From positions 10,619 to 74,618 of the forward strand of contig JACRAK010000012.1 of the NCBI GenBank assembly GCA_016234725.1: a DNA stretch of 64,000 bases, written 5' to 3'. The translations under genes and the position numbers were made by a program. How positions within the stretch are numbered: the stretch's first letter is position 1; each line of letters opens with the position of its first letter. The notes beneath the pieces were generated by a model, which was given only the letters and a program-made list of their open reading frames with translations, was not told where the DNA came from and made no database searches. Positions 2,444 to 33,882 of this stretch are shown piece by piece. The stretch comes from Candidatus Azambacteria bacterium. GTDB lineage: Bacteria; Patescibacteriota; Minisyncoccia; GWC2-36-17; WO2-46-25.

Positions 2444-2448
2444 TAGGC

Positions 2449-3177: not shown

Positions 3178-3183
3178 AGTGTA

Positions 3184-3531: not shown

Positions 3532-3541
3532 TGTGGCAATA

Positions 3542-5379: not shown

Positions 5380-5584
5380 GATAACAAAAGGATAACGCGT
5401 GCATAAAACCGGTGTTTTAAAAAAGATGTTTTTATCCCCCTTTTTTCCACCGCACTATCTCCTTGTTTTCCCCACTATTGCCAACATGAAAAACATACAC
5501 ACCGCCTGTCTCTATCCTTATTATCCCCACTTTTTCACCCTTTAATTATAACTATAAATTTTTCTTTTTATTTATATATTTATT
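5380..5584. promoter_or_regulatory. Candidate oriC (DnaA-box cluster plus AT-rich unwinding element) between dnaA and dnaN
   Basis: Several TTATCCMCA-like boxes (ggataac x2, ttatccccc, tttccaccg, ttatcccca) followed by an almost pure AT 30-mer at about 5555-5584. Confidence 0.5.
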
Positions 5585-6688: not shown

Positions 6689-6690
6689 CA

Positions 6691-6966
6691 ATGTTTGTCT
6701 CGTTAAAAAACATCATCCCGAAGGCGATCGAGAAACACGGGATCCACAAACACATCCGCGCGCTCACGGAAAAAGAAAACATAGAAAAAACGATCAGCGA
6801 CGTGGTAAAAAGAAACGTGATCCTCGTGAAGCACCACGGGAAGAAGATCAGTGTACGAGGGGGGAATTTCTCGGCAGCAAACGAGATACGGCTGCGGGAG
6901 GAAGAAATAAAAAAACGACTCGCAAAAAAAGGCATTCATATCGACGCCATCCGCTGCGCCCTCTAA
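6691..6966 (+). CDS. Small DUF721/DciA-like protein (possible helicase-operator) following dnaN
   Basis: 91 aa, basic; location and size typical of DciA/DUF721 genes in the dnaA-dnaN neighbourhood; weak sequence support. Confidence 0.35.
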   Translation: MFVSLKNIIPKAIEKHGIHKHIRALTEKENIEKTISDVVKRNVILVKHHGKKISVRGGNFSAANEIRLREEEIKKRLAKKGIHIDAIRCAL

Positions 6967-9459: not shown

Positions 9460-9503
9460 ATCAGCGTGATGGTATTGTACCACAAAAACGAATACTTTCA
9501 AGC

Positions 9504-9531
9504 TTGACACAAAACAAAAAATTGATAAAAT
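9504..9531 (+). promoter_or_regulatory. Sigma70-like promoter (TTGACA-16-TAAAAT)
   Basis: Near-consensus hexamers in PBP1A divergent region, facing the 9625 ORF. Confidence 0.35.
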
Positions 9532-9624
9532 GACTTCGAAAACAGCTTTTATCATTAATCATCTCAGTTTCGTTTCGTGTTTCTACAGCGGGATGCGGGG
9601 CGAAGCTCGTTGTGTTCTTACACC

Positions 9625-9819
9625 ATGAAGGAAGAGTATAAGGATGAAGACGCCATCGAAGGCGTTGAAAAAGAGCCGGGAGAAATTAATGACGAAGAGC
9701 TTGCGCTCGATGCGTGGGACAATAACGATGACGATGGCATCGTGCCTGAGGCCACCGAAGAGCTGAGTCCGTACGAGGACCAAGAAGAAAAGCTCAGCCG
9801 CTTCTCGCCGGAGTACTAG
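9625..9819 (+). CDS. Small highly acidic hypothetical protein
   Basis: MKEEYKDEDAIEGVEKEPGEINDEELALDAWDNNDDDG...; no clear SD; low confidence. Confidence 0.25.
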   Translation: MKEEYKDEDAIEGVEKEPGEINDEELALDAWDNNDDDGIVPEATEELSPYEDQEEKLSRFSPEY

Positions 9820-10325
9820 ACGGTCCGGCGCGTGCTCTGTTCGAGTGTTTTTAATATCATACTACTGTGCGTACAGATCGCGGCGGCCAATGCGTCCGCC
9901 GCATCGTCTTGTGTGAGGGGGCTTTTTATGCCAAGGATCGCTTGCACCATTTTTTGCACCTGCTTTTTTTCCGCTCGTCCGTAGCCGGTGACCGCTTGCT
10001 TGATCTGCAGGGGGGTGAATTCGAGTACCGCGACATGATGCCGTTCGCATGTCGCGAGGATGACGCCGCGCGCCTGCGCGACCTTGATCGCGGTCTTGAG
10101 GTTTTTAAAAAAGAAGATGTCTTCAATGCCGATCACGTCCGGCGCGTGCAGAGAAAGGATCTCCCCAAGCTTTTTTTCAAGTTCGTGGAGCTTTTGCGGG
10201 GTCGTTTTGCCTGCCGACGGGACGGCAATGCATCCGTGCGCGACAAGCGCAATGGACGAACCCGTTTTTTTGATGACCCCGAAGCCGATGAGCGTATCCC
10301 CGGGGTCGATGCCCATGATGATCAT
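9816..10325 (-). CDS. ruvC: Holliday junction resolvase RuvC
   Basis: MIIMGIDPGDTLIGFGVI… with catalytic D/E pattern of RuvC. Confidence 0.85.
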   Translation of the reverse strand: MIIMGIDPGDTLIGFGVIKKTGSSIALVAHGCIAVPSAGKTTPQKLHELEKKLGEILSLHAPDVIGIEDIFFFKNLKTAIKVAQARGVILATCERHHVAVLEFTPLQIKQAVTGYGRAEKKQVQKMVQAILGIKSPLTQDDAADALAAAICTHSSMILKTLEQSTRRTV

Positions 10326-16817: not shown

Positions 16818-17942
16818 ATGGAACAGTTCTTGAGCTTAAAAGAACTGGGGAGCCGACTCTATAAGGTCGACATGCTTGTTGTTGCTCTCTTGAAGCGCCG
16901 AATGGATTTGGCGCTTCAAGTAGGGGAGTTCAAGGTAAGGAATGGGCAAAAGATTTTTCGTGCAAGCGTCGAATCAAAACGATTGGCTCAGGTGAAAGCT
17001 GAGGCGCGCAAGCGCAATCTAAGCCAGCACTTTGCAGCATCCATTCTGTATCAAGCTATAAATGAATCATGTAAGCAGCAAATGATTCAGTTGCAAAATA
17101 CAAATGCTCGGCGGCACAAAAAGGCAAAAACCGAAAAAGAGAGCTACCGCCTCTTGAAAAAAAACCTTCTGCTTCTTACGAGGCGATGGGCTGATTCATA
17201 TGATGATCAGTATGACAAAGCTTTTTTTGCGACGCACGCTTATCTTGATTTCGAGGATCAGATCCTCGAGCAAGAGATAAGGCAAATTGCTGATCGGGGA
17301 ATTGCTTTGGACTTGGGGTGTGCAACAGGAAGGTTGTCTACGAAGCTTTCCCCGTCATTCAGATGGGTGTATGGATACGATCTGAGTCCTCATATGCTCA
17401 TGAAGGCAAACGCAAAAGAAAAAAAAGTCCAAAATGTCAGCTTCATTGAAGCTGATTTAGAAAAAGGAATTCCTCAGTCAGACAGTTCGGTATCGTTTGT
17501 GGCAATGAATTTAGGTACGGCAAGCGATATCCGTGATATTTCCGGAGTTCTTAAGGAGGTTAAGCGCGTCCTTGTCTCTGGCGGAAGGTTTTTCTTCTCG
17601 TTTTACAATCGAGAAGCGTTGTTGTATCAATGGGATTTCATCCCATGGCCAGTTGGACTTGCTGCTGAAATCAACATCCACAAACATTGCCTAGACGTTC
17701 ATTTAGGCGCAAAGGTTTTGTCAGTATATGCTCGTCCGTACACCTCGAAGGAGGCGAGGAATCTTTTCCCTAAAGGAATGAAGCTTTCGAAGGTTCTTAC
17801 TCACCCAACGATCAGCTCCATTCTTCCTAATAATCTGTTTGAAGGAAAAGCATCCATTCAAAAGTCTGTGGCTGATATCGATCGACACCTTGCAAAGGCT
17901 CACGATGGCGCATATATCATCGTAACAGGTAAAAAAATGTAG
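16818..17942 (+). CDS. Fusion protein: N-terminal AroQ-type chorismate mutase-like domain + class I SAM-dependent methyltransferase
   Basis: N-term RLYKVDMLVVALLKRRMDLALQVGEFK (AroQ pattern R..ID..D..LL.LL..R..L..VG..K); C-term LDLGCATGR and VLVSGGRFFF methyltransferase motifs. Confidence 0.55.
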   Translation: MEQFLSLKELGSRLYKVDMLVVALLKRRMDLALQVGEFKVRNGQKIFRASVESKRLAQVKAEARKRNLSQHFAASILYQAINESCKQQMIQLQNTNARRHKKAKTEKESYRLLKKNLLLLTRRWADSYDDQYDKAFFATHAYLDFEDQILEQEIRQIADRGIALDLGCATGRLSTKLSPSFRWVYGYDLSPHMLMKANAKEKKVQNVSFIEADLEKGIPQSDSSVSFVAMNLGTASDIRDISGVLKEVKRVLVSGGRFFFSFYNREALLYQWDFIPWPVGLAAEINIHKHCLDVHLGAKVLSVYARPYTSKEARNLFPKGMKLSKVLTHPTISSILPNNLFEGKASIQKSVADIDRHLAKAHDGAYIIVTGKKM

Positions 17943-20733: not shown

Positions 20734-21708
20734 TCACTCAAAGATTGTTATTTTTGGAGGTCGTACGAAGAACATCACTTCCTCATCCAAATTCTTCACA
20801 GTCATTCCCGATGGAGCAAGGATCACGTGCCCTGTGAGCGGTGCAAAGAGGTTGTGTTTTCCATTAGTGGCAATTTTTTGGCCAGCGATAACCTCTTCGT
20901 AGGGTTTAAATTGTTTCACTAGCGAATAAGAAGCATCGGGAAAGATGAGAGAGCTATCAACAAAGTATTCCCGATATTTCTGATCATTGGTTGTTGTTCC
21001 TCCTTCGATCATTCCAAGATTTTTCAACAAAACCTCGGTGCAGGCAATCGCTCGCGTGAATGCTTGGGGGCTTTCGTGAGATCCCGCTTCAATTCCCATT
21101 ACCGGTATCGAGCCATTTCCATAGAAAAATACAGCGGGTTTCGCTATCTGCACGTTTTCTATGTTGGTAATGATATCTGTGATTGGGAATCCGCGAATCA
21201 ATTGGGGGTGAACAGCCCCGATGTTCATAATCATTCCGTCATTTTCTTGGGTGGTGCTATGAATGTCAAAGCCGACATCAAATTGCTCCCAGATATTTTT
21301 TAGTTCTTGGACACGACGGATTTCATACCGAGAGTCATTTTTGTTGCACCTCATAACATTGTCCGGTAGGCGATTCATATTGATGTCCACGAAACGAGAC
21401 GACATCTTTTCTTCTGTGTTTTTGGCGGCTAAAAATCTTTCAGTTGCGCGAATGTTATTGAGAGAAAAAATAACCACCCCATTTTTAAGACGCTGCTCAA
21501 GTGGAAATTTTTCTCTAAAGTACTCAAGTACCGCGAGTCCGCTAGGCTCATTTCCGTGAGTGTGAATCGTTATGCCGAGCACTGGTCCCGATTTGCTCGC
21601 ACCAATTTTCCAAATCCCACCTACTCCTTGATATGAGGAATTTTTGATAAAATTAAGGTGCTTTTTTAAGTATCCTATCCCTAGGTATTTCGGTGATTTC
21701 GGCTCCAT
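20734..21708 (-). CDS. Succinylglutamate desuccinylase/aspartoacylase (AstE/AspA, M14-like) family protein
   Basis: ITIHTHGNEPSG (HGNE zinc-ligand motif). Confidence 0.5.
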   Translation of the reverse strand: MEPKSPKYLGIGYLKKHLNFIKNSSYQGVGGIWKIGASKSGPVLGITIHTHGNEPSGLAVLEYFREKFPLEQRLKNGVVIFSLNNIRATERFLAAKNTEEKMSSRFVDINMNRLPDNVMRCNKNDSRYEIRRVQELKNIWEQFDVGFDIHSTTQENDGMIMNIGAVHPQLIRGFPITDIITNIENVQIAKPAVFFYGNGSIPVMGIEAGSHESPQAFTRAIACTEVLLKNLGMIEGGTTTNDQKYREYFVDSSLIFPDASYSLVKQFKPYEEVIAGQKIATNGKHNLFAPLTGHVILAPSGMTVKNLDEEVMFFVRPPKITIFE

Positions 21709-21871: not shown

Positions 21872-21950
21872 TATTTCGCTGCCGTCAGTCACTTTTTGTA
21901 GCGGGGGAGTGCGCCGGAAACTATCTGCGCATATGTTTCTCGGAGGTGTT
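21872..21950. repeat. Conserved about 75-bp noncoding element, copy A
   Basis: about 88% identical to 24551-24624 (…cactttttgtagcgggggagt…ccggaaactatctg…atatgtttctcg.aggtgt.tggtc). Confidence 0.55.
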
Positions 21951-22080
21951 TGGTCATCGGACCTTCTTTTTGCTTGTTAAATACAACGCCGTCGATTTTC
22001 CCGATGCCGTTCACTTCCACCGCAGTGCCGCAAAAAACGCTTCATCGAATTTTTTATAGTAAGAAAAATAAAAACCCCGG

Positions 22081-22821
22081 CTAATGAGCCGGGGTTTTTA
22101 TTAATTCAATTACCTTATCAAGAAAGAGGGTAAAATTTTGCTTTGTTTTCTTATGCTTCTTGTATAATTGCAAGACTTTTTGTCTTATTTCTTTGTGACC
22201 ATAATAGCCGCGGTCAGGAAGATAAAGAAATTCGGAAAGATCCTCGTTTAGCAAAACTGTTAAAATTTCTTTTAGGTCCCCGACCTGTTTCTCGCCCAAT
22301 CCTTTTTCATTACAATAACCGCTATATCTTTTTAAAAATTCTATATGCATGATCTCGTGCGATGCTGTATTGGGGAAATCGCTAAATTGATTAAACATGA
22401 AGCTGTTCTTTCCAAAAGGAATTCTTTTCCCGAAGGTAAAATAAGCGCGATATTCTTTTTCAAATTCTTTAAGAGGAATATCTAGCATTTTTGAAAGACC
22501 TAAAAGGCATTCCTTGCCTGCTTCACCCCATCTTTTTTCTGCTCTTGCTGATATGTCTTTTATAATATGCGTTGCTTTGGGTGTTTTTAAGAATTTATCA
22601 AGAACCTTTTCTATTTTAGGAAGAATTTTTTCTTCGGAATCTGTTTTTTCAGCGAGTAATTCAATTTCCTGAGGAATGCCGCCCAAATCCCATTTTTTAT
22701 GCCCGCCGGCATCATACGATATATTTTTGACACATGAATCAACCCAATTTTTTAATTCCCAATCCTTATTAAATTCAAGTGTGATTTTAGGGAATAAGTT
22801 CTTTTTTGAGGCATTTTTCAT
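22081..22821 (-). CDS. HExxH-motif putative metallopeptidase (paralog, module A)
   Basis: Start set at MKNASKK; TASHEIMHIEF … ILTVLLNEDL, homologous to 28265 protein (TAMHEIMHIFF … MTVLLNLWF). Confidence 0.45.
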   Translation of the reverse strand: MKNASKKNLFPKITLEFNKDWELKNWVDSCVKNISYDAGGHKKWDLGGIPQEIELLAEKTDSEEKILPKIEKVLDKFLKTPKATHIIKDISARAEKRWGEAGKECLLGLSKMLDIPLKEFEKEYRAYFTFGKRIPFGKNSFMFNQFSDFPNTASHEIMHIEFLKRYSGYCNEKGLGEKQVGDLKEILTVLLNEDLSEFLYLPDRGYYGHKEIRQKVLQLYKKHKKTKQNFTLFLDKVIELIKTPAH

Positions 22822-22854
22822 GCGTTTAAAATACCATAAAAAGAGAAAATGCGC

Positions 22855-22890
22855 TAGCCTATTTAGGCTAGCGCATTTTGAGGCCGGAGA
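22855..22890 (-). terminator. Intrinsic terminator after peptide A (gcgctagccta-aat-aggctagcgc + U-rich)
   Basis: Perfect 10-bp stem immediately after peptide stop. Confidence 0.55.
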
Positions 22891-22894
22891 AGCG

Positions 22895-23026
22895 TTAATA
22901 ATCAGTGCAGCAGTCTCCGTCAGGACAGTCGCAGTCACTACACTGACTCGTGCAATCGAGCAAGGTCTTGCTGGCGACTTCTGATTCAGCAAGAACCAAA
23001 ACTCGATTTTTATCTGTTGTTCCCAT
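22895..23026 (-). CDS. Cys-rich RiPP precursor candidate A (43 aa, six Cys; SCIFF/ranthipeptide-like)
   Basis: Manual ORF MGTTDKNRVLVLAESEVASKTLLDCTSQCSDCDCPDGDCCTDY*; perfect SD aaggaggtgatc; ATG directly abuts the rSAM stop. Confidence 0.6.
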   Translation of the reverse strand: MGTTDKNRVLVLAESEVASKTLLDCTSQCSDCDCPDGDCCTDY

Positions 23027-24115
23027 TTAGATCACCTCCTTTGTTTTGACATGCCCCCAAATTAACTGTAAGGCTTTAAGTTCAATTAATCGTGGAATCA
23101 TGATCTTAAAGAGTTTGCAGTATGGGGAAGAAGTGGTGGCTAGGTCATGAGCTCCAAAATTGATGACGGGACATCCGCCCCCACAAACAAGAGACCACTG
23201 GCAATCTTGACAGCCCTTGTAATCAAGCACATCTTTTGAATGTAGTTCGGGAAAAGTGTCTTGAGACCACGCCATTTCCAAAAAGGTTTTCTTGGTTTCA
23301 AGATTGCCTATCGGCTTTTTATCCATCCTTGCCTGGCAAACAAATACATTGCCGTTATGATCAACGGCTACGCCGGAATGGCCAAGATTGCACCCTCGTA
23401 AATGAGGCTTCCTATCGAGATGAATCTCGCACAGCTGTTGCGCGGCAACGGCGCTATGATTACGAATTGCAAGAGCGTAATAATCATAGCAATCATTAAG
23501 GGCGCTCGAAGCTTTTTTCATAAAGTCTTCGTATCCCTTAAAATCTCCTACATTATCCCGATATAGACCATAACGAAACGGAATGCTTGCATCAATCAAA
23601 AAACGGCTCAGCATAGGCACGCCGGAAATATTTCTATCCGTTATGGTTGTTAGTATCGTCGGGCGGACATCATTCCCCATGCATAAGTTCAGATTTTTGG
23701 CCACGACATCAAAAGAACCGGTGCCAGCGCCGAAGAAGCGTGTTTTGTTGTGCCACTCACCTAAACCATCTAACGACATACAGACCCTCACCGAGTTATC
23801 TTTAATCATCTTTATTAGATTAAGATCGAGCAGAGTCCCGTTTGTCAGTAAGATTAATTTAGCGCGAATACCTTTTTCTACGAATCGTTTCTGAGTCTGT
23901 TCGATCAAAAAATTAATCAACGTTTTATGCAGCGTGGGCTCTCCTCCAGCAAGACGTATTGTTACTAGGTCCAGACCGTGATGGCTTACAGTTTGTTCAA
24001 GCTTATCCAGATATAAGCTTGCTGTCTGAAAAGACATGAACTTTTTGTCCTTATTTATATAACAGTAAGGACATTTTAAATTACAGCAGTTGGCTATATG
24101 GAGCCATGTGCTCAT
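23027..24115 (-). CDS. Radical SAM/SPASM-domain peptide maturase A
   Basis: CNLKCPYC (CxxxCxxC) and C-terminal SPASM CQDCQWSLVCGGGC; start at MSTWLH (upstream TTG extension possible). Confidence 0.7.
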   Translation of the reverse strand: MSTWLHIANCCNLKCPYCYINKDKKFMSFQTASLYLDKLEQTVSHHGLDLVTIRLAGGEPTLHKTLINFLIEQTQKRFVEKGIRAKLILLTNGTLLDLNLIKMIKDNSVRVCMSLDGLGEWHNKTRFFGAGTGSFDVVAKNLNLCMGNDVRPTILTTITDRNISGVPMLSRFLIDASIPFRYGLYRDNVGDFKGYEDFMKKASSALNDCYDYYALAIRNHSAVAAQQLCEIHLDRKPHLRGCNLGHSGVAVDHNGNVFVCQARMDKKPIGNLETKKTFLEMAWSQDTFPELHSKDVLDYKGCQDCQWSLVCGGGCPVINFGAHDLATTSSPYCKLFKIMIPRLIELKALQLIWGHVKTKEVI

Positions 24116-24185
24116 GCCCTTAACATTGTTTTTTTCTAGACTAGGTCTAAACAGCGGAGCATCTTTTGGTTGAATAAGTCCGTTT

Positions 24186-24491
24186 TCAAGCAGAAGTTTT
24201 ATCCGTGGCAAATCTTTCTCGGTCTGAAAAAGGGACAGATTGTCTATAAAGAAGCTTAGTTCTCATGTCGAGCAGGACCACGCCTCTTTTGCTTCCAGGG
24301 ACAAGCGCATAACCATAGCCGTCTACTTCTCCTGTGTAACAATTACCCGTCTTTTTATATGCCTCTATTTCCCTCATTTTCTTTCCTCCGTAGGTTTTAT
24401 GATGTTGTAAAAGATCTTTTCGTATTTGTCTTTCTAATAACATAACAATAGCGTTTTTGTCAAATTCTTCATAAGAAGGGTTACTAATCAA
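24186..24491 (-). CDS. Hypothetical 101-aa protein upstream of rSAM A (non-ATG start)
   Basis: ORF with TTG start and no SD; possibly an accessory/RRE-like protein or not expressed. Confidence 0.2.
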   Translation of the reverse strand: MISNPSYEEFDKNAIVMLLERQIRKDLLQHHKTYGGKKMREIEAYKKTGNCYTGEVDGYGYALVPGSKRGVVLLDMRTKLLYRQSVPFSDRERFATDKTSA

Positions 24492-24550: not shown

Positions 24551-24624
24551 CCGTCAACCACTTTTTGTAGCGGGGGAGTTTGCCGGAAACTATCTGGGTA
24601 TATGTTTCTCGCAGGTGTCTGGTC
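24551..24624. repeat. Conserved about 75-bp noncoding element, copy B
   Basis: see 21872-21950. Confidence 0.55.
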
Positions 24625-25465: not shown

Positions 25466-25561
25466 CACCCTCTTTTGTTTTTTGCCGACAGGATCAGAAA
25501 AACCGGGCGTGGCGGAAGTTATGGCGGAAAGCTTTGAAAAATAAAGGTTTTTTGGTATCAT
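25466..25561 (+). promoter_or_regulatory. Conserved regulatory element copy 1 (GGCGGAA-N5-GGCGGAA direct repeat + TTGAAA-N17-TATCAT promoter)
   Basis: Shares the core (a)tc(t/a)gaaaaaccgggcgtggcggaagttatggcggaaa(a/g)ctttgaaaaataaa with copies 2 and 3. Confidence 0.6.
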
Positions 25562-25567
25562 GAAAAC

Positions 25568-26587
25568 ATGAAGCTACGATTTATAACATCAAAAATAGAG
25601 AATCAATTCTTCTTTATCGCGAATCTTTCTGAATGGCATTTTTCATGTCGATTAGATTATAACCAGGCGTGGATCGAGGAAACAGGAGCATTGAGCAATG
25701 AAGAGAAAAGGAAGCTCAAAGTCTTCGCAAGTATCTTGCAGAAACATGGATTTACTTACGATAAGAATGGAAAAACAAAATACATCGGTAAATATTTTTA
25801 TTGTTATTCGGAGGAAAAAGCATGGGAAGAATTGGGAAAAAATATTACCAAAAAAGAGGCCCTAAGAATAAAAAATGTTTTTAAGATTTTTGAACCACGA
25901 TTTGAAAAAACATGGAACCCGCAAGAGCTCGCGGCAAGAGTAAAAACAATACAAAGTTTTACAAAAGAAAAAAGATGGAAGGAGCTCGTGCAGCGCGTAA
26001 ATATATTATTTGGGGGGCCTGCCATAACAAAAAAGATTTTTATTGTTGTCTTGATTTCTCCTCTGGCAGGAGAAGGAGTGACGGCTGCCGGTAGCGCAAA
26101 TAACGGAGATCAATGCATAACATACGAGATTCCCAAATTAAAAAATGGAGGGTGGGAGCGTGATTATTCTATGGGAGTTTTAGCTCACGAGATCGCTCAC
26201 GCGTTGTTTTCTAAAAAAGGCGGCGAAAAAGAGATTGCAAAGATTATTAAAAAAGAAAATATTCCTGCGCATATAAAAGGATTCCCCACGAGCGCTGTTT
26301 CTGTGATTAACGAGGCCATTACAGAGAGCTTTATTCCCCTCGGCTACCTTGGTCAAAAATATGCTGGGAGAGACCTCGCTCCGTTATTGTTAGATAATAG
26401 CGATAAAGGATGGCTCACAGAAGAAAAGACAAAGAAAGAGAGAGGAATTAATTACCGCAATATAAGAAAATATCTTATCTGGCAATTGTATCCTCTTGCT
26501 GTTATATATGGACGACAAAGTAAATCCATCGATGCATATTTTATCAGGCAGGCAGTATTATTACTGAAAAATGCGCTCGGCAAATAA
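25568..26587 (+). CDS. HExxH-motif putative metallopeptidase (paralog, module B)
   Basis: 339 aa; GVLAHEIAHALF … VINEAITESF. Confidence 0.4.
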   Translation: MKLRFITSKIENQFFFIANLSEWHFSCRLDYNQAWIEETGALSNEEKRKLKVFASILQKHGFTYDKNGKTKYIGKYFYCYSEEKAWEELGKNITKKEALRIKNVFKIFEPRFEKTWNPQELAARVKTIQSFTKEKRWKELVQRVNILFGGPAITKKIFIVVLISPLAGEGVTAAGSANNGDQCITYEIPKLKNGGWERDYSMGVLAHEIAHALFSKKGGEKEIAKIIKKENIPAHIKGFPTSAVSVINEAITESFIPLGYLGQKYAGRDLAPLLLDNSDKGWLTEEKTKKERGINYRNIRKYLIWQLYPLAVIYGRQSKSIDAYFIRQAVLLLKNALGK

Positions 26588-26601
26588 AAAAAAGGCAACC
26601 G

Positions 26602-27681
26602 TTAGGGTGCCTGTGGTATTGCCGATGCTTTTTGGAGAAAAAGCTTGATGTAGTCGAACATCCTTTTTCTTGTCTCGCAAAAAGGGTAGTCTCCGCCATA
26701 GTTTCCTGTCGCCCAGTAGGAGTCGGCTCTGCATCCGCCACGACAAATTGCTACATATTCGCAACGGCCGCATTTTTCAGCATTGTGATTGCTTCTTATT
26801 TCAGCGAGCGCCTTAGTTTTTGATCCCGCTAAAGCATTGATCAGTGATTGGCTGAGGATGTTACCAAGCATAAACCTCTCTTCCACCAATGAACCACAGG
26901 GAACGATGTTTCCTTCTTGATCAATGGTGATCATTTTCTTTAAGCAAGAGTTAGCAAAGGAGCACCCTCTCGGTCTCTGGCCAAGAAGCGAGCGCATCAT
27001 TGTGTCGAGCGGCTCGATTGAGGGAAAAGAGTTTTCCGTATGCGCCCAAAGATCGAATACGTCCTTATAGAAAGCAAACATTTCATCGTTTGAGGGCATT
27101 ATCGGTCTTTCTGAAAGTGGCACGCTTTTTAGAGGCAGCAAGCCAAATGAGTTCACGCCGAGAGCTTCATAGAAATGAAATATCTCTTTGGCGCGAGAAA
27201 CATTTAGTTTACTTATAACAGAAAGAACACCAAGAGGCATGCCAGTCGCTTTTATTTCTGCGCAAGTTCTTAATAGCGCACTTATATCAGAGCGGCGATG
27301 AGCTATGTATACATCTGTTGGCGCATCAAGACTAATCCCCACATGGAAATCATTCTTTTGAAGAAAATCAATCCACGAGGCATCCAGCAAGAGGCCGTTT
27401 GTTTGGATGTTGTTGTGATATACAATGCCTCTTTTTTCCGTTTCCTCCTTCTGGGCATTTATTACTTCTTGATAAAAATTTTTACCAACAAGAAGCGGTT
27501 CGCCGCCATGCCAGCAGAACTCGACACTGTCAAAGCCGATGGAGGCATTATGAATCATAACCCTGATGTTTTTTATCTCGAACTTTTTTATGTTTCTTCG
27601 AGAGGCGCGTGAGTAACAATACACGCACTGAATGTTGCAGTCAGATCCCGTGATCATGATGATCGTCATGGCTTTCTTCAT
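26602..27681 (-). CDS. Radical SAM/SPASM-domain peptide maturase B
   Basis: CNIQCVYC and SPASM CGRCEYVAICRGGC. Confidence 0.7.
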   Translation of the reverse strand: MKKAMTIIMITGSDCNIQCVYCYSRASRRNIKKFEIKNIRVMIHNASIGFDSVEFCWHGGEPLLVGKNFYQEVINAQKEETEKRGIVYHNNIQTNGLLLDASWIDFLQKNDFHVGISLDAPTDVYIAHRRSDISALLRTCAEIKATGMPLGVLSVISKLNVSRAKEIFHFYEALGVNSFGLLPLKSVPLSERPIMPSNDEMFAFYKDVFDLWAHTENSFPSIEPLDTMMRSLLGQRPRGCSFANSCLKKMITIDQEGNIVPCGSLVEERFMLGNILSQSLINALAGSKTKALAEIRSNHNAEKCGRCEYVAICRGGCRADSYWATGNYGGDYPFCETRKRMFDYIKLFLQKASAIPQAP

Positions 27682-27756
27682 AAAATTCGCTCCCGTGTTT
27701 TTTTGAATGCGGATGTGGAGGGAGGGGGTATTTACTACCCCCTCCTGTTCGAGCTA

Positions 27757-27939
27757 TTACTTGGTGCTGGCGTCGCGATAATGATCGTGCGACGGTTGAT
27801 CGACCCAGTGATCGTGTTTCATGCTCAGCGAGTCACCGTTTTTAATCTTGGCAGTCGCTTGAGTAATGATCTTTTGCACGGGTCCGGATATGCAGACGCC
27901 TGACATATCCTTAACATGACTATCGATTCCGCGTTCCAT
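27757..27939 (-). CDS. 60-aa candidate precursor peptide B (His/aromatic-rich C-terminus)
   Basis: SD aaggagggtaaat-ATG; MERGIDSHVKDMSGVCISGPVQKIITQATAKIKNGDSLSMKHDHWVDQPSHDHYRDASTK; hairpin GGAGGGGG…CCCCCTCC between it and rSAM B. Confidence 0.45.
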   Translation of the reverse strand: MERGIDSHVKDMSGVCISGPVQKIITQATAKIKNGDSLSMKHDHWVDQPSHDHYRDASTK

Positions 27940-28100: not shown

Positions 28101-28238
28101 GTTTAAGAAACTACGCAACCACTCAAAACATATTTTATCACCCAACAACCCCATTGTTTTTAAAGATAATCTGAAAAACCGGGCGTGGCGGAAGTTATGG
28201 CGGAAAACTTTGAAAAATAAAATTGTTTTTGATATGAT
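28101..28238. promoter_or_regulatory. Conserved regulatory element copy 2 between divergent promoters (rSAM-B operon on - ; HExxH c on +)
   Basis: about 125 bp about 90% identical to copy 3; -35 TTGAAA 28210-28215, -10 TATGAT 28233-28238; minus-strand TTGACA-17-TATATA at about 28020-28050. Confidence 0.6.
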
Positions 28239-28264: not shown

Positions 28265-28978
28265 ATGAGCACCCCGCGTGTTATATTTTCTTACAATCAG
28301 GAAAAAGATATCAAAAACATTCAAATTGGACTTGATACTGTGAGTCGCGGCAGACAACCAGATAGAGAGCTTGTACAAATTATCCAGCAATACGGCAGCG
28401 CGCCATCAGAAGAAGACATCAAGGAATATTTAATTTCTCGATGGAAGAATAAAAGGGGTGTCCCTGACCTTATCGTAAAACAACTCCAAGAATATTGGGA
28501 CACAATAGAAGAAAAATATTTTAATCATCTTGCAGATCGAATGCAGCTCACGTCCTTTCATGGAATTAAACAGCTAGGCGGTTTTTTAAGTGTGCGTTAC
28601 GGAAGCGGTTATAATACTGAACAACAATGGTTTGCGGTAAGTGTGTATAATAGCACCCTAAAGAACACATTAACGGCAATGCATGAGATCATGCATATTT
28701 TTTTTCATAAACAATGGTGGGATTTTTGCAAAAAACAAGGATTGCCCGATAACAATATATGGGATGTAAAAGAATCAATGACGGTGCTTTTAAATTTGTG
28801 GTTTAAAAATCAGGTTATTGATACTGATTGGGGATATGATGAGCACGCCGAGCTTCGCCGTTTCATTATAGATTGGTTTTTGGAAACGAGAGATTTTAAA
28901 AAAACATTGGAAAGGGCGTGTATATATATGAAAGAACACTCAGAAAAAAGCCCTGATTGGATAACCAATCAGGGCTAG
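28265..28978 (+). CDS. HExxH-motif putative metallopeptidase (paralog, module C)
   Basis: 237 aa; TAMHEIMHIFFHK … ESMTVLLNLWF. Confidence 0.45.
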   Translation: MSTPRVIFSYNQEKDIKNIQIGLDTVSRGRQPDRELVQIIQQYGSAPSEEDIKEYLISRWKNKRGVPDLIVKQLQEYWDTIEEKYFNHLADRMQLTSFHGIKQLGGFLSVRYGSGYNTEQQWFAVSVYNSTLKNTLTAMHEIMHIFFHKQWWDFCKKQGLPDNNIWDVKESMTVLLNLWFKNQVIDTDWGYDEHAELRRFIIDWFLETRDFKKTLERACIYMKEHSEKSPDWITNQG

Positions 28979-29002
28979 TTTGCTGATGTAAAACACCAGC
29001 TT

Positions 29003-29155
29003 TTAGGAGCCATCGCAGCCGTCTGTGCCGCCGTGACATCCTGACTGGCATACGTTGCAGCCGCTGTTGTCACAGGTGCCACCGCTGTTGTCGCATGCGG
29101 CTAGTACGGTAGTAGCCGACGATCCTTCAATGAGCGAAGAAAAAGCGAGCTTCAT
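29003..29155 (-). CDS. Cys-rich RiPP precursor candidate C (50 aa, seven Cys)
   Basis: Manual ORF MKLAFSSLIEGSSATTVLAACDNSGGTCDNSGCNVCQSGCHGGTDGCDGS*; perfect SD aaggaggtgattg; downstream of rSAM C on same strand. Confidence 0.6.
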   Translation of the reverse strand: MKLAFSSLIEGSSATTVLAACDNSGGTCDNSGCNVCQSGCHGGTDGCDGS

Positions 29156-29226
29156 AACAATCACCTCCTTATTGGGAGTTTCTGTGTTTTGCTGACTCCT
29201 TCCCAGTGAGTAGCAAGTGGGGGTGT

Positions 29227-30534
29227 TTACACCACCAGCTCCAAAACATTTCTGCTGATAAGCTCGCTAAGAAAATGCAGATATTTTGCATTTTCCATAG
29301 AGATTTTATACATAGCGCGAAGAGATTTTGGAGTGAACGACAGTTTTTTGATGTGAATGTCTTCTATGAGATTCAGTGTCTCGTGCTCCACGAAGGTGTT
29401 TTTAATGCCACTCGTGTTGATTATCCCTAATGGTTCATCTCGGCGAAAGCGACAAGCTCTTCTTACGCGGAGCACCGTGTTGTTCTTAAGAAGCGCATGT
29501 GTTTTTGGAACCGCGCGTTTTTGAGCCATTTGTGCTCTCATGATCGAGTCTTCACCGTGAACATCGCCATTAAGGGAGGCGACTCGGCAGCCACCACCAC
29601 ACATAGCGACAAGCTTACAGGAAAGACAGGCCCGAGGAAGAAGAGATCCGTCACGCCACTGAACCATTTTTAACCAAATGGATTTCAAATCTTCAGTGGA
29701 AAGAGATCCATAAGCGATTTCGTGGTGGGGGCATGCGCGCACCGATCCATCTGAAGCAATGGCGATGGACGTTTTACCAGCAGAACAGGTTCGCTGACCA
29801 AGGAGGGAATAAGCATCGTCGTTGTCGAAAAAACAGATGGGGTAGGGAACGAGAGAGTCTAATTGCATGCCAGTGGTTTTCAGATCAAGTAGCTGGTCAA
29901 CAATTAAACCGACGCTTTTTATTGGAAGAGCGAGTTCCTTTGAAGACTGTTTGTTTGGTAAGCGCGGAGATGTAACGCGTGTCGCAGAAAATGCTACCAC
30001 CCCAAGCTTATGTGCAAACTCGCCAGTTTTTTTCACATCTAGCAGGTTTTGCTCCATTACAACCATATTTACAGCGGTGCGGATGCCGGCGGCATGAGCA
30101 CACTCAATACCCCGCACGATACGCTGAAAAGATCCTTTTGTGCCGGAAAGAGAATCGTGGGTATTGGAATCATACGATAAGAGCGATGTTAATATTGTTC
30201 GGAGTCCCACCGAAAAAAGCTCCTTTGCAATTTTTTCAGTAAGTAGAACAAGGTTTGAATTTAGGCTGAACGAGATTTTCCTCTTCGAAAGTTCCTTAAT
30301 GAGAAAAATAAGTTCGCCCTTATTTAGAAGTGGTTCTCCTCCTGTAAGTATGACGTGGAAAATCTTGTGGGCAGCAAGTTGCTCAGCAATTCGAATCGAC
30401 AACGCCTCCGAAATGCTTTTATTTGGAACTAATCCATCGTCTCGCCAAAAATTGTAGCAGTGGAAACATTTTTGGTTGCAGCCAGTATTGATTTCAACAT
30501 GAGCAGCTAGTGGAGCATCAAGCGTTTTATACAT
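29227..30534 (-). CDS. Radical SAM/SPASM-domain peptide maturase C with C-terminal PqqD-like (RRE-like) extension
   Basis: CNQKCFHC; SPASM CLSCKLVAMCGGGC; C-terminal about 110 aa …KKLSFTPKSLRAMYKISMENAKYLHFLSELISRNVLEL resembling PqqD/RRE; SD aaaaggaggctgtt. Confidence 0.7.
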   Translation of the reverse strand: MYKTLDAPLAAHVEINTGCNQKCFHCYNFWRDDGLVPNKSISEALSIRIAEQLAAHKIFHVILTGGEPLLNKGELIFLIKELSKRKISFSLNSNLVLLTEKIAKELFSVGLRTILTSLLSYDSNTHDSLSGTKGSFQRIVRGIECAHAAGIRTAVNMVVMEQNLLDVKKTGEFAHKLGVVAFSATRVTSPRLPNKQSSKELALPIKSVGLIVDQLLDLKTTGMQLDSLVPYPICFFDNDDAYSLLGQRTCSAGKTSIAIASDGSVRACPHHEIAYGSLSTEDLKSIWLKMVQWRDGSLLPRACLSCKLVAMCGGGCRVASLNGDVHGEDSIMRAQMAQKRAVPKTHALLKNNTVLRVRRACRFRRDEPLGIINTSGIKNTFVEHETLNLIEDIHIKKLSFTPKSLRAMYKISMENAKYLHFLSELISRNVLELVV

Positions 30535-30646: not shown

Positions 30647-30786
30647 TTTCAAGAAACTAACGCAACCCCTCAAAACATATTTTATCACTCACCAGCCCCC
30701 TTTGTTTTTTAAAGATAATCTGAAAAACCGGGCGTGGCGGAAGTTATGGCGGAAAACTTTGAAAAATAAAGGTTTTTTGGTATGAT
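30647..30786. promoter_or_regulatory. Conserved regulatory element copy 3 between divergent promoters (rSAM-C operon on - ; MTase/HK on +)
   Basis: Same 125-bp element; -35 TTGAAA 30759-30764, -10 TATGAT 30781-30786; minus-strand TTGACA-17-TAATGT about 30600-30630. Confidence 0.6.
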
Positions 30787-30822: not shown

Positions 30823-31695
30823 ATGCACGATCTCGAAAATATTAAAATTATTATTGATAGCGATCGTAAGCTTTATGAAATTCATAGTTTCATAAGGAAA
30901 ACAATCGATATTTTTTTAGTCCCAATCTTAAATAGATTGCCACGTGGTTTATTTAGGAAATCAAGCAAAAAAGCAGAAACAGTGAATAAGCATGCAACAA
31001 CCCATAGAGCATTAGAAGTGATTTATTCGTTTAACAACCAGGTAAATTTCGAAAAAGGCATCTTCGACGGGTTTTTTACTTATTTTTGGCAGAAAACCAG
31101 TCATGCTAAGGCTTTAAGAAATCGGCTTAAATTAGTAAAGAGAGAGCTCTTAAAAGCAATACATTCTCTAAATAAAAAGGAAATAAAAATACTGAATCTT
31201 GCGTGTGGTTCAAATAGAGCGGTTATAGAGGTTGTGGGAATGCACAAAAACGATTTCGATTTTAAGGTATTTGGGATGGATAAAAATGAAAGCGCGATCG
31301 AAGATGCGAAAGCATTAACAACCGCTTTTGATGTTGACCATCTGTTTAGCTGGCATCAAAATACGGTTTCCGGTTTTTTAAAAGAGGCGGAGCAAGCCCA
31401 GTTTGATATAGTAGAGATGGTTGGATTTTTGGATTATGTGCCGGACGAGAAAGCCGTTTTTTTGTTTGATCAAATTTATTCAGTTCTGGCTGACGGCGGC
31501 TTCTTCATCACAGGGAATATAAAAGATAATAAGGAAAGAAGATTTGTTACCGAGGTGGTTGGTTGGCCGCATCTTATTTTTCGTAGCGAGAATGACCTTG
31601 CGAGAATATTGAAGCAATCCAAATTTAAAGACGCAGCTACCCATATCGTATACGAACCGCACAATATCCACGGAGTGGTAGTGTGTAAAAAATAA
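30823..31695 (+). CDS. Putative class I SAM-dependent methyltransferase
   Basis: ILNLACGSNRAV (motif I-like) and LADGGFFITG (post I/II). Confidence 0.4.
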   Translation: MHDLENIKIIIDSDRKLYEIHSFIRKTIDIFLVPILNRLPRGLFRKSSKKAETVNKHATTHRALEVIYSFNNQVNFEKGIFDGFFTYFWQKTSHAKALRNRLKLVKRELLKAIHSLNKKEIKILNLACGSNRAVIEVVGMHKNDFDFKVFGMDKNESAIEDAKALTTAFDVDHLFSWHQNTVSGFLKEAEQAQFDIVEMVGFLDYVPDEKAVFLFDQIYSVLADGGFFITGNIKDNKERRFVTEVVGWPHLIFRSENDLARILKQSKFKDAATHIVYEPHNIHGVVVCKK

Positions 31696-31704: not shown

Positions 31705-33882
31705 GTGTTCTATTTTATAGCAACGTCTTTAGTAAATGCTTTTATTGCCGGCTTGCTCGGATTCCTTGTCATTTCAAAAAATTGGAGGGATCTCGCGAAC
31801 AAGTTATTTTTTGGACTTAGCATTTCTGTTGTCTTCTGGGCATTAAATTATTGGCAATGGCTTTCTTCTCAAAACGCAAATTCCGCGCTGGTTTTTTCAC
31901 GGCTATTTTCGGTAGGAGCTCTTTTTATTCCCATTTTTTATTTTCATTGGGTTCTTATTTTCAGCGGAACAAACAAACAATACAAGACATTTCTTAAAGT
32001 TTTATATTTCATCGCTTTTGTTTTTCTTTCCCTTTCCTTCTCAAAACTATTTATCGAAGGAGTGGGGCAAAAACTTTTTTTCCCTTTTTGGCCAACCCCC
32101 GGAATTCTTTACAATATCTATTTAATTGTTATCTATTTTGGACTCACGATCTATTCTTTGTTTATTCTCTGGAGGAGTTATATTCGTAGTAATGACAGCC
32201 ATCAGAAAGCAATCATTAAATATATCATATTGGGATCCTTCATTGGGTTTAGCGGGGGAGCAACAAACTTTTTCTTATGGTACGATATCCCGATTTTGCC
32301 GTATGGAAATATTCTTGTTAGTTTCTATCCCTTAGCTCTTGCTCTCGCCAGCTTCCGGCACGGCCTTTTCAACATCAAGGTCATCGCCACAGAATTGCTG
32401 ACGCTCACTGTCTGGATCGCGGTATTGGTTGAATTGATATTAGCTGAAACATGGGAAAAGCGGCTTTTGGAAGCGGGGTTGTTGGCGTTCGTGGTGGTGT
32501 CCGGTATTTTTATTATCCGCAGCGTGTTGAAGGAGGTTGAGCAGAAGGACAAGTTTAAAGATTTATCAGAACGACTGGAAAGCGCGAATGCGCAGCTTAA
32601 ACAAAAAACGCTGTATCTGACGACATTACAGGGGTTTACGCATGACATCGGCAGGACGCTTGATTTTAAGGAGATCACTCAAAAGATCGTTGACGGCATT
32701 TCGGAAAAATTTGGGTATCTTGCCGGCCTGCTTCTCTTGGTGTCCGAAGACGGCAAGATGATCTTTCCCGTTACTATCACGGAGAACACGATCACGAAGA
32801 TCGCGCTTAAGATATTGCCAAAACAGATGCATGAATATGCCGGCGATTTTGAGCATGACGATACGCTATCGATCCGGGCGGTCAAGGACAACGCGATACA
32901 GCAAAGCAATGCCATAGCCGATTTTCTCAGCCCGCCGATCTCCGAAACGCTGTGCGTGACGATCCAGAAGGCAACCGGGCTGAAATCCGGCGTAGCGATA
33001 CCGATACGCTCTGAAGGGAAGGCGATCGGCGTACTCGATATTTTTCTTGATCGGCCGAAAGAAGAGATAGGAGGCGACGAGCTCGAGGTGATGAAAACGC
33101 TTGCAAACCAGATCGGCATCGTACTCAAAAATGCATCGCTGTTCGAACAAGTGAAGGAAGCAAACGAAAAGCTGAAAGAATTGGACGATCTGAAAACGGA
33201 CTTTATTTCCATCGCGTCGCATCAGTTGCGTACGCCGCTCACGGCGATCAAGGGGTATACCTCTATGATCATGGAAGGGTCATACGGCGAGGTGTCTGAT
33301 AAAGTGAGAGTAACAATAGGAAAGGTGTTTCAATCCGCCCAGCGCCTTATTTATATCGTGAATGACTTGCTTGATATTTCCCGTATCGAGCAGGGGCGGT
33401 TTACCATTGCGCTTGAGCCGATAAAGGTGGCGAATGTGCTGAAAGATGTGGTGGAGGAGCTCCAGCAGAATGCAAAAAGCAAGAACCTTTCACTTGAGCT
33501 TGCGGTAGCACCGGAAAATATGGAGGTAACGGCGAGCGCCGACTTTAACAAGATACGGCAGGTGTTTTTGAATGTGATCGACAATGCGATCAAATATACC
33601 AACGAAGGATATGTGCGCGTGGGAGTTGAGAAGAGAGCGAATGATGTGCTTATGTCCGTAAAGGATTCCGGCATCGGTATTTCAGAGGCAAGCATGAAGA
33701 ATCTGTTCCAGAAATTCAGCCGGGCAAAAGGCGTGACAAAGCTCCATACCGACGGCTCCGGCCTCGGGCTCTTTATCGTCAAGAAGATCATGGAAGCCCA
33801 TGGCGGCACCGTGTGGGCGGAATCGGAAGGCGAAGGCAAGGGCTCGCAGTTTTATGTTTCCATCCCTTTGCAAAAGGAGTAG
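31705..33882 (+). CDS. Sensor histidine kinase with N-terminal 7TM domain, GAF-like region, HisKA and HATPase_c
   Basis: 7 hydrophobic helices; H-box SHQLRTPLTAIKGY; N/G1/G2 boxes; AT-rich 5' half vs GC-rich 3' half. Confidence 0.75.
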   Translation: MFYFIATSLVNAFIAGLLGFLVISKNWRDLANKLFFGLSISVVFWALNYWQWLSSQNANSALVFSRLFSVGALFIPIFYFHWVLIFSGTNKQYKTFLKVLYFIAFVFLSLSFSKLFIEGVGQKLFFPFWPTPGILYNIYLIVIYFGLTIYSLFILWRSYIRSNDSHQKAIIKYIILGSFIGFSGGATNFFLWYDIPILPYGNILVSFYPLALALASFRHGLFNIKVIATELLTLTVWIAVLVELILAETWEKRLLEAGLLAFVVVSGIFIIRSVLKEVEQKDKFKDLSERLESANAQLKQKTLYLTTLQGFTHDIGRTLDFKEITQKIVDGISEKFGYLAGLLLLVSEDGKMIFPVTITENTITKIALKILPKQMHEYAGDFEHDDTLSIRAVKDNAIQQSNAIADFLSPPISETLCVTIQKATGLKSGVAIPIRSEGKAIGVLDIFLDRPKEEIGGDELEVMKTLANQIGIVLKNASLFEQVKEANEKLKELDDLKTDFISIASHQLRTPLTAIKGYTSMIMEGSYGEVSDKVRVTIGKVFQSAQRLIYIVNDLLDISRIEQGRFTIALEPIKVANVLKDVVEELQQNAKSKNLSLELAVAPENMEVTASADFNKIRQVFLNVIDNAIKYTNEGYVRVGVEKRANDVLMSVKDSGIGISEASMKNLFQKFSRAKGVTKLHTDGSGLGLFIVKKIMEAHGGTVWAESEGEGKGSQFYVSIPLQKE

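Follow-up and report, generated by a model that had tools for sequence, protein, structure and literature searches.

A probable ranthipeptide-like RiPP cassette with a Cys/Asp-rich precursor and an HExxH partner protein in CPR bacteria

We analyzed a 64,000-nt stretch of DNA (the window) from Candidatus Azambacteria, an ultra-small groundwater bacterium, in which three radical SAM (rSAM)-peptide modules lie side by side. Module A is a three-gene unit on the minus strand, encoding an rSAM-SPASM maturase, a 43-aa Cys/Asp-rich peptide, and an HExxH protein (Table 1). The first-pass annotation had placed the precursor downstream of the maturase, the reverse of scfA-scfB, with an HExxH protein on the same strand. 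Both the partnership and the order rSAM, peptide, terminator, HExxH were found to be kept in related loci, and the HExxH gene co-occurs with the rSAM and peptide genes in other loci. The Module A family occurs across Parcubacteria-type lineages and is under strong purifying selection.

Table 1. Features of Module A and its flanks in the window
Feature	Position	Strand	Remarks
rSAM-SPASM peptide maturase gene, N-terminal RRE-fold domain, interrupted by 1-nt insertion	23027..24377	-	
Shine-Dalgarno GGAGG of maturase gene	24385..24389	-	conserved in L161/L162
C-terminal maturase ORF, TTG start, 394 aa	23027..24211	-	CX3CX2C radical-SAM core + SPASM
N-terminal fragment ORF left by frameshift	24186..24377	-	
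Extra base (A on the minus strand)	24247	-	CTTCTTTATAGAC vs CTTCTTT-TAGAC in relatives
Precursor peptide gene, 43 aa	22895..23026	-	homologues, selection
Shine-Dalgarno AGGAGGT of peptide gene	23034..23040	-	within last maturase codons (..KEVI*)
Intrinsic terminator-like hairpin (15 pairs) and U-tract between peptide and HExxH genes	22836..22879	-	
HExxH protein (HEIMH), 246 aa	22081..22821	-	unnamed gluzincin-like family
Terminator-like hairpin (16 pairs) closing the HExxH gene and the unit	22067..22102	-	
Upstream direct-repeat copy, 3'-end relic of class IV aminotransferase (ilvE-like) gene	24551..24624	-	
Terminator-like hairpin after upstream relic	24526-24499	-	
Downstream copy of ilvE-like 3'-end relic	21882..22008	-	

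The peptide ORF, read from 23026 to 22895, translates to MGTTDKNRVLVLAESEVASKTLLDCTSQCSDCDCPDGDCCTDY and contains six Cys, as the first-pass annotation had stated; all six lie within residues 25-40. The rSAM stop codon TAA (23029-23027) directly adjoins the peptide ATG (23026-23024); therefore, there is no spacer between the two genes. The Shine-Dalgarno sequence that had been claimed was also recovered and is strong, and the maturase C-terminus KEVI, at whose codons it lies, is conserved in P0001-P0003. We divided the peptide into a leader (about residues 1-24), in which the motif (V/I)LVL(A/S)ESE(V/I) is conserved, and a core (about residues 25-43), CTSQCSDCDCPDGDCCTDY, with six Cys and five Asp and, as read from the sequence, several Cys-Xn-Asp motifs. 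Downstream, a strong terminator had been predicted, and we found a hairpin of 15 pairs at 22879-22846 followed by CTCTTTTT (-25 kcal/mol); an equivalent hairpin, not conserved in sequence, follows the precursor gene in 8/8 loci examined.

We then asked how the peptide fares beside orthologous rSAM genes, where the first-pass annotation would have taken the lack of a Cys-rich ORF as grounds to abandon its proposal. Among orthologous loci having downstream sequence, all 16 (48-86% enzyme identity) carry a peptide homologue of 38-60 aa, starting -31 to +30 nt relative to the rSAM stop, and most loci still carry one at 30-35% enzyme identity. The family shares the motif QCxxECxxCxDCxCxDGDC. These conserved homologues bear out the proposal that the small ORF encodes a precursor-type peptide and is coupled with an rSAM-SPASM enzyme.

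The maturase starts at the ATG 24377-24375. The first-pass annotation had let its interval run over the N-terminal piece of the maturase (24186-24491) without remark; the part up to 24491 does not make up a gene of its own. The annotation had also missed an insertion of one base at 24247, which throws translation out of frame past codon 43, in helix 1 of the RRE-fold domain. The N-terminal fragment thus left comprises 43 native residues (MREIEAYKK...RTKLL) and 20 out-of-frame residues before a stop, while removal of base 24247 restores an intact, stop-free protein of 449 aa. A programmed +1 frameshift at CUU-UAU-AGA was considered and rejected, because each of the 59 close homologues is encoded by one ORF (~450 aa) and neither of the two nearest relatives has the base. 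The frameshift in this assembly is very recent.

By motif and domain scores, the enzyme is a member of the Radical SAM / SPASM peptide-maturase superfamily: it has the CX3CX2C motif and scores 52 bits against PF04055 (cut-off 29.5) and 27.2 bits against PF13186 (cut-off 21.5). Across 53 homologues, C98, C102, and C105 of the core and C329, C347, C389, C392, C398, C402, and C420 of the SPASM domain are invariant. The N-terminal domain has the winged-helix, PqqD-like form of a RiPP recognition element (RRE), and the closest structure, RRE included, is the ranthipeptide maturase CteB. Among NCBIfam models, PapB (NF047865; 2.4e-41, 142.1 bits, model positions 6-322 of 330) matches best, and there are further matches to QhpD, ScfB, and cyclophane-forming and other maturases; among solved structures, anSME is the best match by sequence (8.7e-38). 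No member of the cassette family reaches the cut-off of SCIFF, ScfB, PapB, or any other named family. Compared with the related locus L161, the repaired rSAM gene has a dN/dS of 0.156, indicating purifying selection.

The HExxH gene starts at the ATG at 22821, not at the TTG of a longer mechanical ORF (22081-22992), and its product is identical to the NCBI entry 'hypothetical protein HY839_01900 [Candidatus Azambacteria bacterium]'. Its unnamed family comprises about 420 clusters, in which only HExxH and a downstream Glu, the gluzincin signature, are invariant. In the window protein, HExxH lies on one helix and the Glu ligand on the following helix. The gene is under constraint as well (dN/dS 0.10 against L161). 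Because the family invariants are those of gluzincins, the protein is probably a leader peptidase. A sequence-profile search of the family against the PDB and a Foldseek search of the protein against the PDB gave nothing and nothing significant, respectively. The HExxH protein of module B (25568-26587) was tried as a family member and is unrelated beyond the motif.

In the scheme that we infer, Module A would be a RiPP maturation cassette consisting of a precursor, an RRE-bearing rSAM/SPASM cross-linker, and a zinc leader peptidase, and as a whole we consider this reading probable. The maturase and the 43-aa precursor would share a transcript, a terminator coming right after the precursor, and the RRE-fold domain at the N-terminus of the enzyme would bind the precursor's leader. 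The maturase would cross-link the Cys/Asp-rich core using SAM and auxiliary Fe-S clusters, the most likely products being ranthipeptide-type thioethers from Cys sulfur to a side-chain carbon (Cys to Asp, as for PapB and QhpD). In Cys-Xn-Asp motifs with n = 0-6, PapB links Cys to Asp/Glu by thioethers (PMC9413430). The downstream HExxH protein, a putative zinc metallopeptidase of a new gluzincin-like family, would then remove the leader. Any biological activity of the product is likewise presumptive.

Several other explanations were weighed against this scheme. The 43-codon ORF could be an accidental reading frame in intergenic DNA. It is unannotated in the source record and has no exact match in the collections, and its Cys-richness is not beyond chance, because in the six-frame translation of the window there are about 30 places where 25 aa hold 5 or more Cys. 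However, its position and sequence are conserved across enzyme identities from 86% to 30%, it has a strong Shine-Dalgarno sequence, and its homologues are called as genes in other assemblies. Further, the core is identical to that of L161 from residue 27 on, and nearly all changes in residues 25-43 are synonymous (5 against 1 non-synonymous; dN/dS 0.02), with a dN/dS of 0.28 in the leader. Judged by this conservation in other genomes, the ORF at 22895-23026 is a real gene; on the comparative data the chance reading is already refuted, and we give it next to no weight. Granted the gene, the enzyme might perform other SPASM chemistry (sactionine S to C-alpha bonds, anSME-like formylglycine formation, carbon-carbon cross-links, or epimerisation), or the peptide might be a small cofactor or metal-binding precursor. 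The anSME match, the scores of cyclophane-forming and other maturases, the resemblance of the CxxCxxCxC core pattern, as read from the sequence, to metal-cluster binding motifs, and the absence of an exporter gene from the unit all fit such a reading. On the other side, PapB, QhpD, and ScfB, which are among the NCBIfam matches and include the best one, all form Cys thioethers, and the best structural match is CteB; cyclophanes need aromatic residues, whereas the conserved core residues are Cys and acidic. We consider these alternatives together unlikely, and thioether cross-linking remains our preferred reading.

As to the HExxH partner, it might be an oxygenase of the ChlH/BpmH/PflC type, HExxH enzymes that depend on Fe(II) and alpha-ketoglutarate, and hydroxylate residues of the core, for example Asp. 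None of 36 family members matched the alpha-KG HExxH model in NCBIfam at E<=10, with TIGR04267, which we take to be the model of the alpha-KG-dependent HExxH beta-hydroxylase domain (IPR026337), presumed to be in the searched release; none of 102 members matched a related Pfam family. A ChlH-like fold may apply to the protein; its structural score is lower to these oxygenases than to true peptidases. We hold this role to be quite improbable and favor leader peptidase. More serious is the prospect that the cassette is dead in this genome, the insertion at 24247 being a real mutation that destroys the RRE, the peptide unmodified or unused, and the locus starting to decay. The extra base is absent from two independent relatives, and the protein collection lacks an identical maturase but holds the HExxH protein of the same MAG, which fits a pseudogene annotation in the source record. 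The module-C rSAM gene of L161 likewise matches in two frames, so such cassettes appear to break. Nevertheless, the maturase is otherwise intact and constrained, with only 6 lineage-specific substitutions compared with 4-8 in its closest relatives, and the peptide and HExxH genes are both intact. The base could also come from a mistake in assembly or consensus calling, or represent a minority variant of the metagenome bin, or a TTG restart at 24211 could yield an RRE-less enzyme; PapB reportedly acts leader-free on some substrates (PMC12715619). With the frameshift in the RRE domain, the cassette may therefore be inactive or impaired in this particular genome, and to its outright death here we assign slightly less than an even chance.

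We also examined the flanks. In three genomes, the cassette is bracketed by direct repeats of ~75-100 nt made of duplicated host-gene 3' ends: ilvE-like in the window and in L161, and an unrelated gene plus its own terminator in L001. In the window, the 74-nt repeat proper (21882-21955) has 89% identity to the upstream copy, and peptide-level similarity (GIGKIDGVVFNKQKEGPMTKHLRETYAQIVSGALPRYKK) extends the downstream relic to 22008. Closely related genomes carry the cassette in different neighbourhoods. Rfam and tRNA scans, run in case the flanking repeats were RNA genes or tRNA att sites, turned up nothing but a distant tmRNA, and these candidates were discarded, the repeat being the 3'-end relic of an aminotransferase gene instead. 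The D1 repeat as a riboswitch or leader was dropped too, as the L161 downstream copy faces a convergent gene and the substitutions are codon-like. We speculate that the cassette is self-contained and spreads among CPR genomes by recombination at duplicated host-gene 3' ends; that the HExxH partner is the founding member of a new RiPP leader peptidase family, which works with two or more unrelated rSAM classes (modules A and C); and that the product is a new class of Cys-Asp cross-linked peptides specific to ultra-small, host-dependent bacteria. We judged these three claims jointly, and that all of them hold at once seems doubtful.

Taken together, CPR bacteria have in Module A a real ranthipeptide-like RiPP cassette that is uncharacterised, its chemistry being a proposal. 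The genomes of CPR/Patescibacteria measure about 1 Mb, and specialised metabolism is usually said to be scarce in these bacteria; our literature search on this family in CPR bacteria returned generic BGC surveys only. The family offers an unexplored Asp-rich precursor scaffold, CxxxCxxCxC..DC(C), and a maturase that has an RRE and is related to PapB and CteB, enzymes of biotechnological use, and the new small zincin-like partner family could supply a leader peptidase of compact size. Should the peptides act between episymbionts and their hosts or competitors, they would give a handle on CPR biology. There is also a lesson for annotation: the precursor genes are systematically missed, and in this MAG the maturase is broken.

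Many related bacteria have kept the unit, which falls into none of the named families. The first-pass annotation had called it SCIFF/ranthipeptide-like. The second term agrees with CteB as nearest structure and PapB as best NCBIfam match, and a peptide of ~45 residues with six Cys in its C-terminal half is SCIFF-like in form. However, the window peptide has no match to SCIFF TIGR03973 at E<=0.01, none of 20 family peptides matches it at E<=10, and none of the 20 matches any NCBIfam model. 'SCIFF-like' is only an analogy, because the enzyme lies far below the cut-offs of ScfB (TIGR03974; 89.3 bits against 425) and PapB (142.1 against 340). In SCIFF systems (scfA-scfB; CteA-CteB, thermocellin), which occur in Clostridia, the precursor lies upstream of the maturase, whereas in this CPR family it lies downstream in all orthologous loci, its core is Asp-rich with other Cys spacing, and an HExxH partner is present. 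As in PapA-PapB (freyrasin, Cys-X3-Asp thioethers), the core is Cys/Asp-rich with several Cys-Xn-Asp motifs, but the peptide is unrelated to PapA in sequence, shorter, and without six regular CX3D repeats.

QhpD, also of the rSAM-SPASM type, makes thioethers from Cys to Asp/Glu. The Module A enzyme scores 3.4e-26 against its model (TIGR03906; 92 against a cut-off of 453), but the QhpD/QhpC substrate is the gamma-subunit of quinohemoprotein amine dehydrogenase, not a small leader peptide, and the dehydrogenase genes are absent here. Similarly, anSME does without an RRE domain and acts on a sulfatase, of which it oxidises a single Cys or Ser, whereas Module A has a dedicated small peptide gene and no sulfatase nearby. 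The alpha-KG HExxH oxygenases (ChlH, BpmH, PflC, PesO) differ in that their family model is unmatched in 138 HExxH sequences. In M1 aminopeptidases and thermolysin, the spacing from His to Glu is ~18-19 residues; in the HExxH protein, 25 residues separate the second His of HExxH from the Glu. The protein has no significant sequence or Foldseek match to M1 aminopeptidases, thermolysin, or YydH/LiaK, and unlike gluzincins and YydH/LiaK it is a small, stand-alone, soluble protein of 246 aa with an N-terminal half of its own.

The anatomy of module A was checked on the window sequence (see table). The minus-strand junction reads ...AAAGGAGGTGATC TAA ATG GGA..., and the peptide ORF begins on the base right after the rSAM stop. 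What the first-pass annotation had stated of the ORF, its abutting ATG, the SD, the terminator and the HExxH gene was all correct. Six-frame translation of the window gave about 30 stretches with ≥5 Cys in 25 residues, so Cys-richness alone is unremarkable, and the case for a peptide gene rests on comparing sequences. The window's own peptide is absent from every collection searched and is therefore unannotated in the source record.

Coordinates of module A, its flanking repeats and the neighbouring modules (window positions unless a locus is named)
Feature	Position	Strand	Remarks
rSAM ORF as listed, 394 aa	23027-24211	-	Radical_SAM and SPASM domains
rSAM stop TAA	23029-23027	-	read from sequence
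SD AGGAGGT of peptide ORF	23040-23034	-	read from sequence
Peptide ORF, 43 codons	23026-22895	-	encodes MGTTDKNRVLVLAESEVASKTLLDCTSQCSDCDCPDGDCCTDY; read from sequence
15-pair hairpin and U-tract, 3' of peptide ORF	22879-22846	-	-25 kcal/mol
HExxH protein gene, 246 aa	22821-22081	-	next after hairpin
Second terminator-like hairpin	22102-22067	-	after HExxH gene; from sequence
74-nt direct repeat bracketing module A	21882-21955, 24551-24624		89% identical
L161 repeats	5546-5776, 8273-8375		duplicated 3' end of ilvE-like gene
L001 repeats, 79 nt	4809-4887, 7292-7370		95% identical; unrelated to ilvE-like; bracket same three genes
L086 repeats, 47-nt, hairpin-like	3733-3916, 6636-6765		different repeats, on both sides
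Module B	25568-27939		rSAM-SPASM, HEIAH protein, candidate precursor
Module B rSAM-SPASM, 359 aa	26602-27681	-	anSME-/DynA-like, 208 and 203 bits, below cut-offs
Module B HEIAH protein, 339 aa	25568-26587	convergent	
Module B candidate precursor	27757-27939	-	upstream of rSAM gene; C-terminus rich in His, Trp, Tyr (...SLSMKHDHWVDQPSHDHYRDASTK)
Module C	28265-30534		rSAM-SPASM, small ORF, HEIMH protein
Module C rSAM-SPASM, 435 aa	29227-30534	-	best NCBIfam GeoRSP and NirJ2 type, all below cut-off
Module C Cys/Gly/Asp-rich small ORF	29003-29164	-	downstream of rSAM gene; ...MKLAFSSLIEGSSATTVLAACDNSGGTCDNSGCNVCQSGCHGGTDGCDGS
Module C HEIMH protein, 237 aa	28265-28978	convergent	paralogue of module A HExxH
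Promoter-like element, three copies	25493-25553, 28169-28229, 30718-30786		90-95% identical; sigma-70-like, TTGAAA-N17-TATGAT/TATCAT

We retrieved loci coding for rSAM relatives and scanned the DNA 3' of every enzyme stop codon for peptide ORFs. The Cys-rich precursor ORF proposed in the first-pass annotation recurs beside orthologous rSAMs in related genomes: a homologue of 38-51 aa, starting -28 to +25 nt from the rSAM stop, was found in 16/16 loci whose enzyme is 48-86% identical and whose downstream DNA is long enough. Most loci with 30-35% enzyme identity also have one (38-60 aa, start -31 to +30 nt). Examples are MGTTDKNRVLVLAEADVARESLLDCASQCSDCDCPDGDCCTDY in L161, from a close relative, and ...EVIVLSEAEASKAISFTYECECSDCPCPDGDCCTDY and MSNEEILVISESETDNTASANECQCGDCDCPDGDCCTDY in L001 and L163, from other assemblies. 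Family members combine the leader motif (V/I)LVL(S/A)ESE(V/I) with the core QCxxECxxCxDCxCxDGDC(C)xD(Y) across a variable linker; the final 22 residues hold 4-7 Cys and 5-7 Asp+Glu, with basic residues nearly absent. Across the 43 peptide codons the window and L161 differ at 14 positions. Six amino-acid changes result, all at residue ≤26, and changes from residue 27 onward are exclusively synonymous; the core (residues 25-43) has a dN/dS of 0.02, the leader one of 0.28. The homologous ORFs are called as genes in other assemblies, labelled 'hypothetical protein' every time. Judged by these comparisons, the peptide ORF is a real, conserved gene.

The NCBIfam matches of the maturase are exclusively peptide maturases or anSME, and none reaches its own cut-off; PapB is best (142 bits vs 340), followed by DynA, anSME, CefB, QhpD and ScfB. 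Homologues are 445-460 aa long, and their first 43 residues align to an upstream window ORF (MREIEAYKKTGNCYTGEVDGYGYALVPGSKRGVVLLDMRTKLL...), beyond which that ORF runs out of frame. Aligned to L161 and L162 (a locus from a further assembly), the window has one extra base at position 24247, CTTCTTTATAGAC vs CTTCTTT-TAGAC. Deleting it restores an intact 449-aa frame from ATG 24377 to TAA 23027, whose product is 86% identical to P0001 and P0002, the nearest homologues (P0002 from L161). Because the repaired gene is otherwise intact, with a dN/dS of 0.156 and no excess of lineage-specific substitutions (6, vs 4-8 in the nearest relatives), the frameshift either arose very recently or reflects an assembly error or minority variant. 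The protein collection holds no protein identical to the maturase, though it does include the HExxH protein from the adjacent gene of this MAG, which fits pseudogene status of the gene in the record.

In an AlphaFold model of the maturase family (pLDDT 92), residues 7-36 form a strand-rich N-terminal segment, after which come helices (38-45, 52-64). On this model the first 85 residues make up an RRE-fold domain, predicted to bind the leader, which the Pfam PqqD model does not detect. The frameshift interrupts this domain after codon 43.

In most loci that offer enough sequence, a homologue of the HExxH protein neighbours the rSAM-peptide pair, as far down as 30% enzyme identity. Its gene commonly follows on the same strand; in some loci it is convergent or lies upstream. 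The 246-aa protein falls into no Pfam or NCBIfam family, and a PDB search gave no sequence relative. An exhaustive profile search returned 423 cluster representatives (205 of them at E≤1e-10), and with few exceptions these are stand-alone proteins 210-250 aa long. Only H155, E156, H159 and E185 are invariant in 102 divergent members; this HExxH with a further Glu on the next helix is the gluzincin zinc-ligand pattern. Weak HMM matches among members are to metallopeptidase families only: Peptidase_M78 (5 members), DUF6782, DUF5700 and YydH/LiaK. Since the module C protein is a paralogue over its full length (hhalign 99.3%, E 1.7e-20), the family would act with two or more distinct rSAM classes, which would suit a generic processing step.

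The recurrent gene order is rSAM, peptide (coupled or overlapping), hairpin terminator, HExxH. A GC-rich hairpin with a U-tract separates the peptide and HExxH genes in 8/8 loci examined; its structure rather than its sequence appears conserved, as the stems differ in sequence. We propose that the terminator would keep maturase-precursor transcript in excess of peptidase transcript and that the RRE would bind the peptide leader. The radical-SAM core would then take hydrogen from an acceptor residue, a Cys thiolate held at an auxiliary cluster would form the thioether, as in CteB and PapB, and the zincin-like protein would afterwards cleave off the leader. The core carries Cys-Xn-Asp motifs with n = 0-3 (C29-D33, C32-D36, C34-D38, C39-D42 and others), a pattern accepted by PapB (PMC9413430). 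Nothing within the module A unit indicates export or immunity.

Direct repeats bracket the rSAM-peptide-HExxH unit in four genomes (window, L161, L001 and L086, the last from another assembly). Repeat-related stretches in the window span 21882-22008 and 24551-24624. On the module strand the window repeat encodes ...GIGKIDGVVFNKQKEGPMTKHLRETYAQIVSGALPRYKK, and its differences from the L161 copies lie largely at third codon positions. An intact class IV aminotransferase (ilvE-like) gene (PF01063, 1.7e-54) lies immediately upstream of the L161 cassette, and this sequence forms its C-terminus; the gene's last ~100 nt recur after the HExxH gene at 97% identity, and the upstream copy contains a 100-N scaffold gap. 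The window repeats, like those of L161, are the duplicated 3' end of such a gene. The L001 repeat comprises the final 16 nt of the upstream gene and its terminator. Window and L161 are closely related (T2SSE ATPase 95% identical), yet their cassette neighbourhoods differ. The cassette looks like one inserted through recombination at gene 3' ends, and the unit, which contains no recombinase, may be mobile. Directly past the downstream repeat, on the same strand, lies an AstE_AspA (succinylglutamate desuccinylase/aspartoacylase) zinc-hydrolase family gene (20734-21708), unlinked to the module in L161, L001 and L163.

Two further rSAM-peptide modules, B and C, lie beside module A. The HEIAH protein of module B shares the motif with the module A HExxH family and is otherwise unrelated to it; the candidate precursor's C-terminal composition would suit a cyclophane-type maturase. 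L001 has a comparable second module (rSAM 8486-9883, peptide 8322-8489, HExxH 7588-8250). The L161 homologue of the module C rSAM gene (2416-3800) aligns to its window counterpart partly in one frame (about 2418-3065) and partly in another (about 3079-3786); the sole called gene there is 221 aa, and this rSAM gene may be frameshifted too. Two TGGCGGAA boxes, 12 nt apart, precede every promoter-like element, and the three copies lie just upstream of plus-strand genes: HExxH-B, HExxH-C and a methyltransferase (30823-31695). A histidine kinase gene (31705-33882) comes after the third copy. This arrangement suggests that a response regulator co-regulates the modules.

The module A HExxH protein matches 'hypothetical protein HY839_01900 [Candidatus Azambacteria bacterium]' at 100% identity, which places the source in the Parcubacteria group of Patescibacteria, i.e. 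CPR. Close homologues of all three module A genes come from groundwater and other metagenomes, their named sources being the Patescibacteria Jorgensenbacteria, Berkelbacteria, Paceibacterota and Parcubacteria. Elsewhere in the window, the isoleucyl-tRNA synthetase ORF (51718-55323, 1201 aa) appears to be interrupted at about residues 518-697 by a histidine-phosphatase (phosphoglycerate-mutase-like) domain that separates the two halves of the IleRS match. A 374-aa ORF (16818-17942), adjoining trpS- and trpD-like genes, is an unusual fusion of an N-terminal chorismate-mutase-like segment (residues 1-90) and a class I SAM-methyltransferase domain (about 150-270). A tmRNA gene lies at 49474-49860 on the minus strand (Rfam 129 bits; predicted tag peptide ANLFSKVKNAIALSFAPLSFARV).

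Module A is thus solidly real and conserved, in an unusual lineage. Uncharacterised rSAM-RiPP clusters are numerous, the module's chemistry is deduced and its maturase is broken in this genome, which tempers the finding. Our literature search found no paper on the family. The proposed SCIFF/ranthipeptide-like character holds in so far as module A would work like such systems, but not as membership of SCIFF/ScfB (ScfB 89 bits, cut-off 425); module A also stands outside PapB, QhpD and every other curated family. Three traits set it apart: the maturase comes first in a conserved order of genes, the Asp-rich core has a Cys spacing of its own, and the zincin-like partner belongs to a new family.
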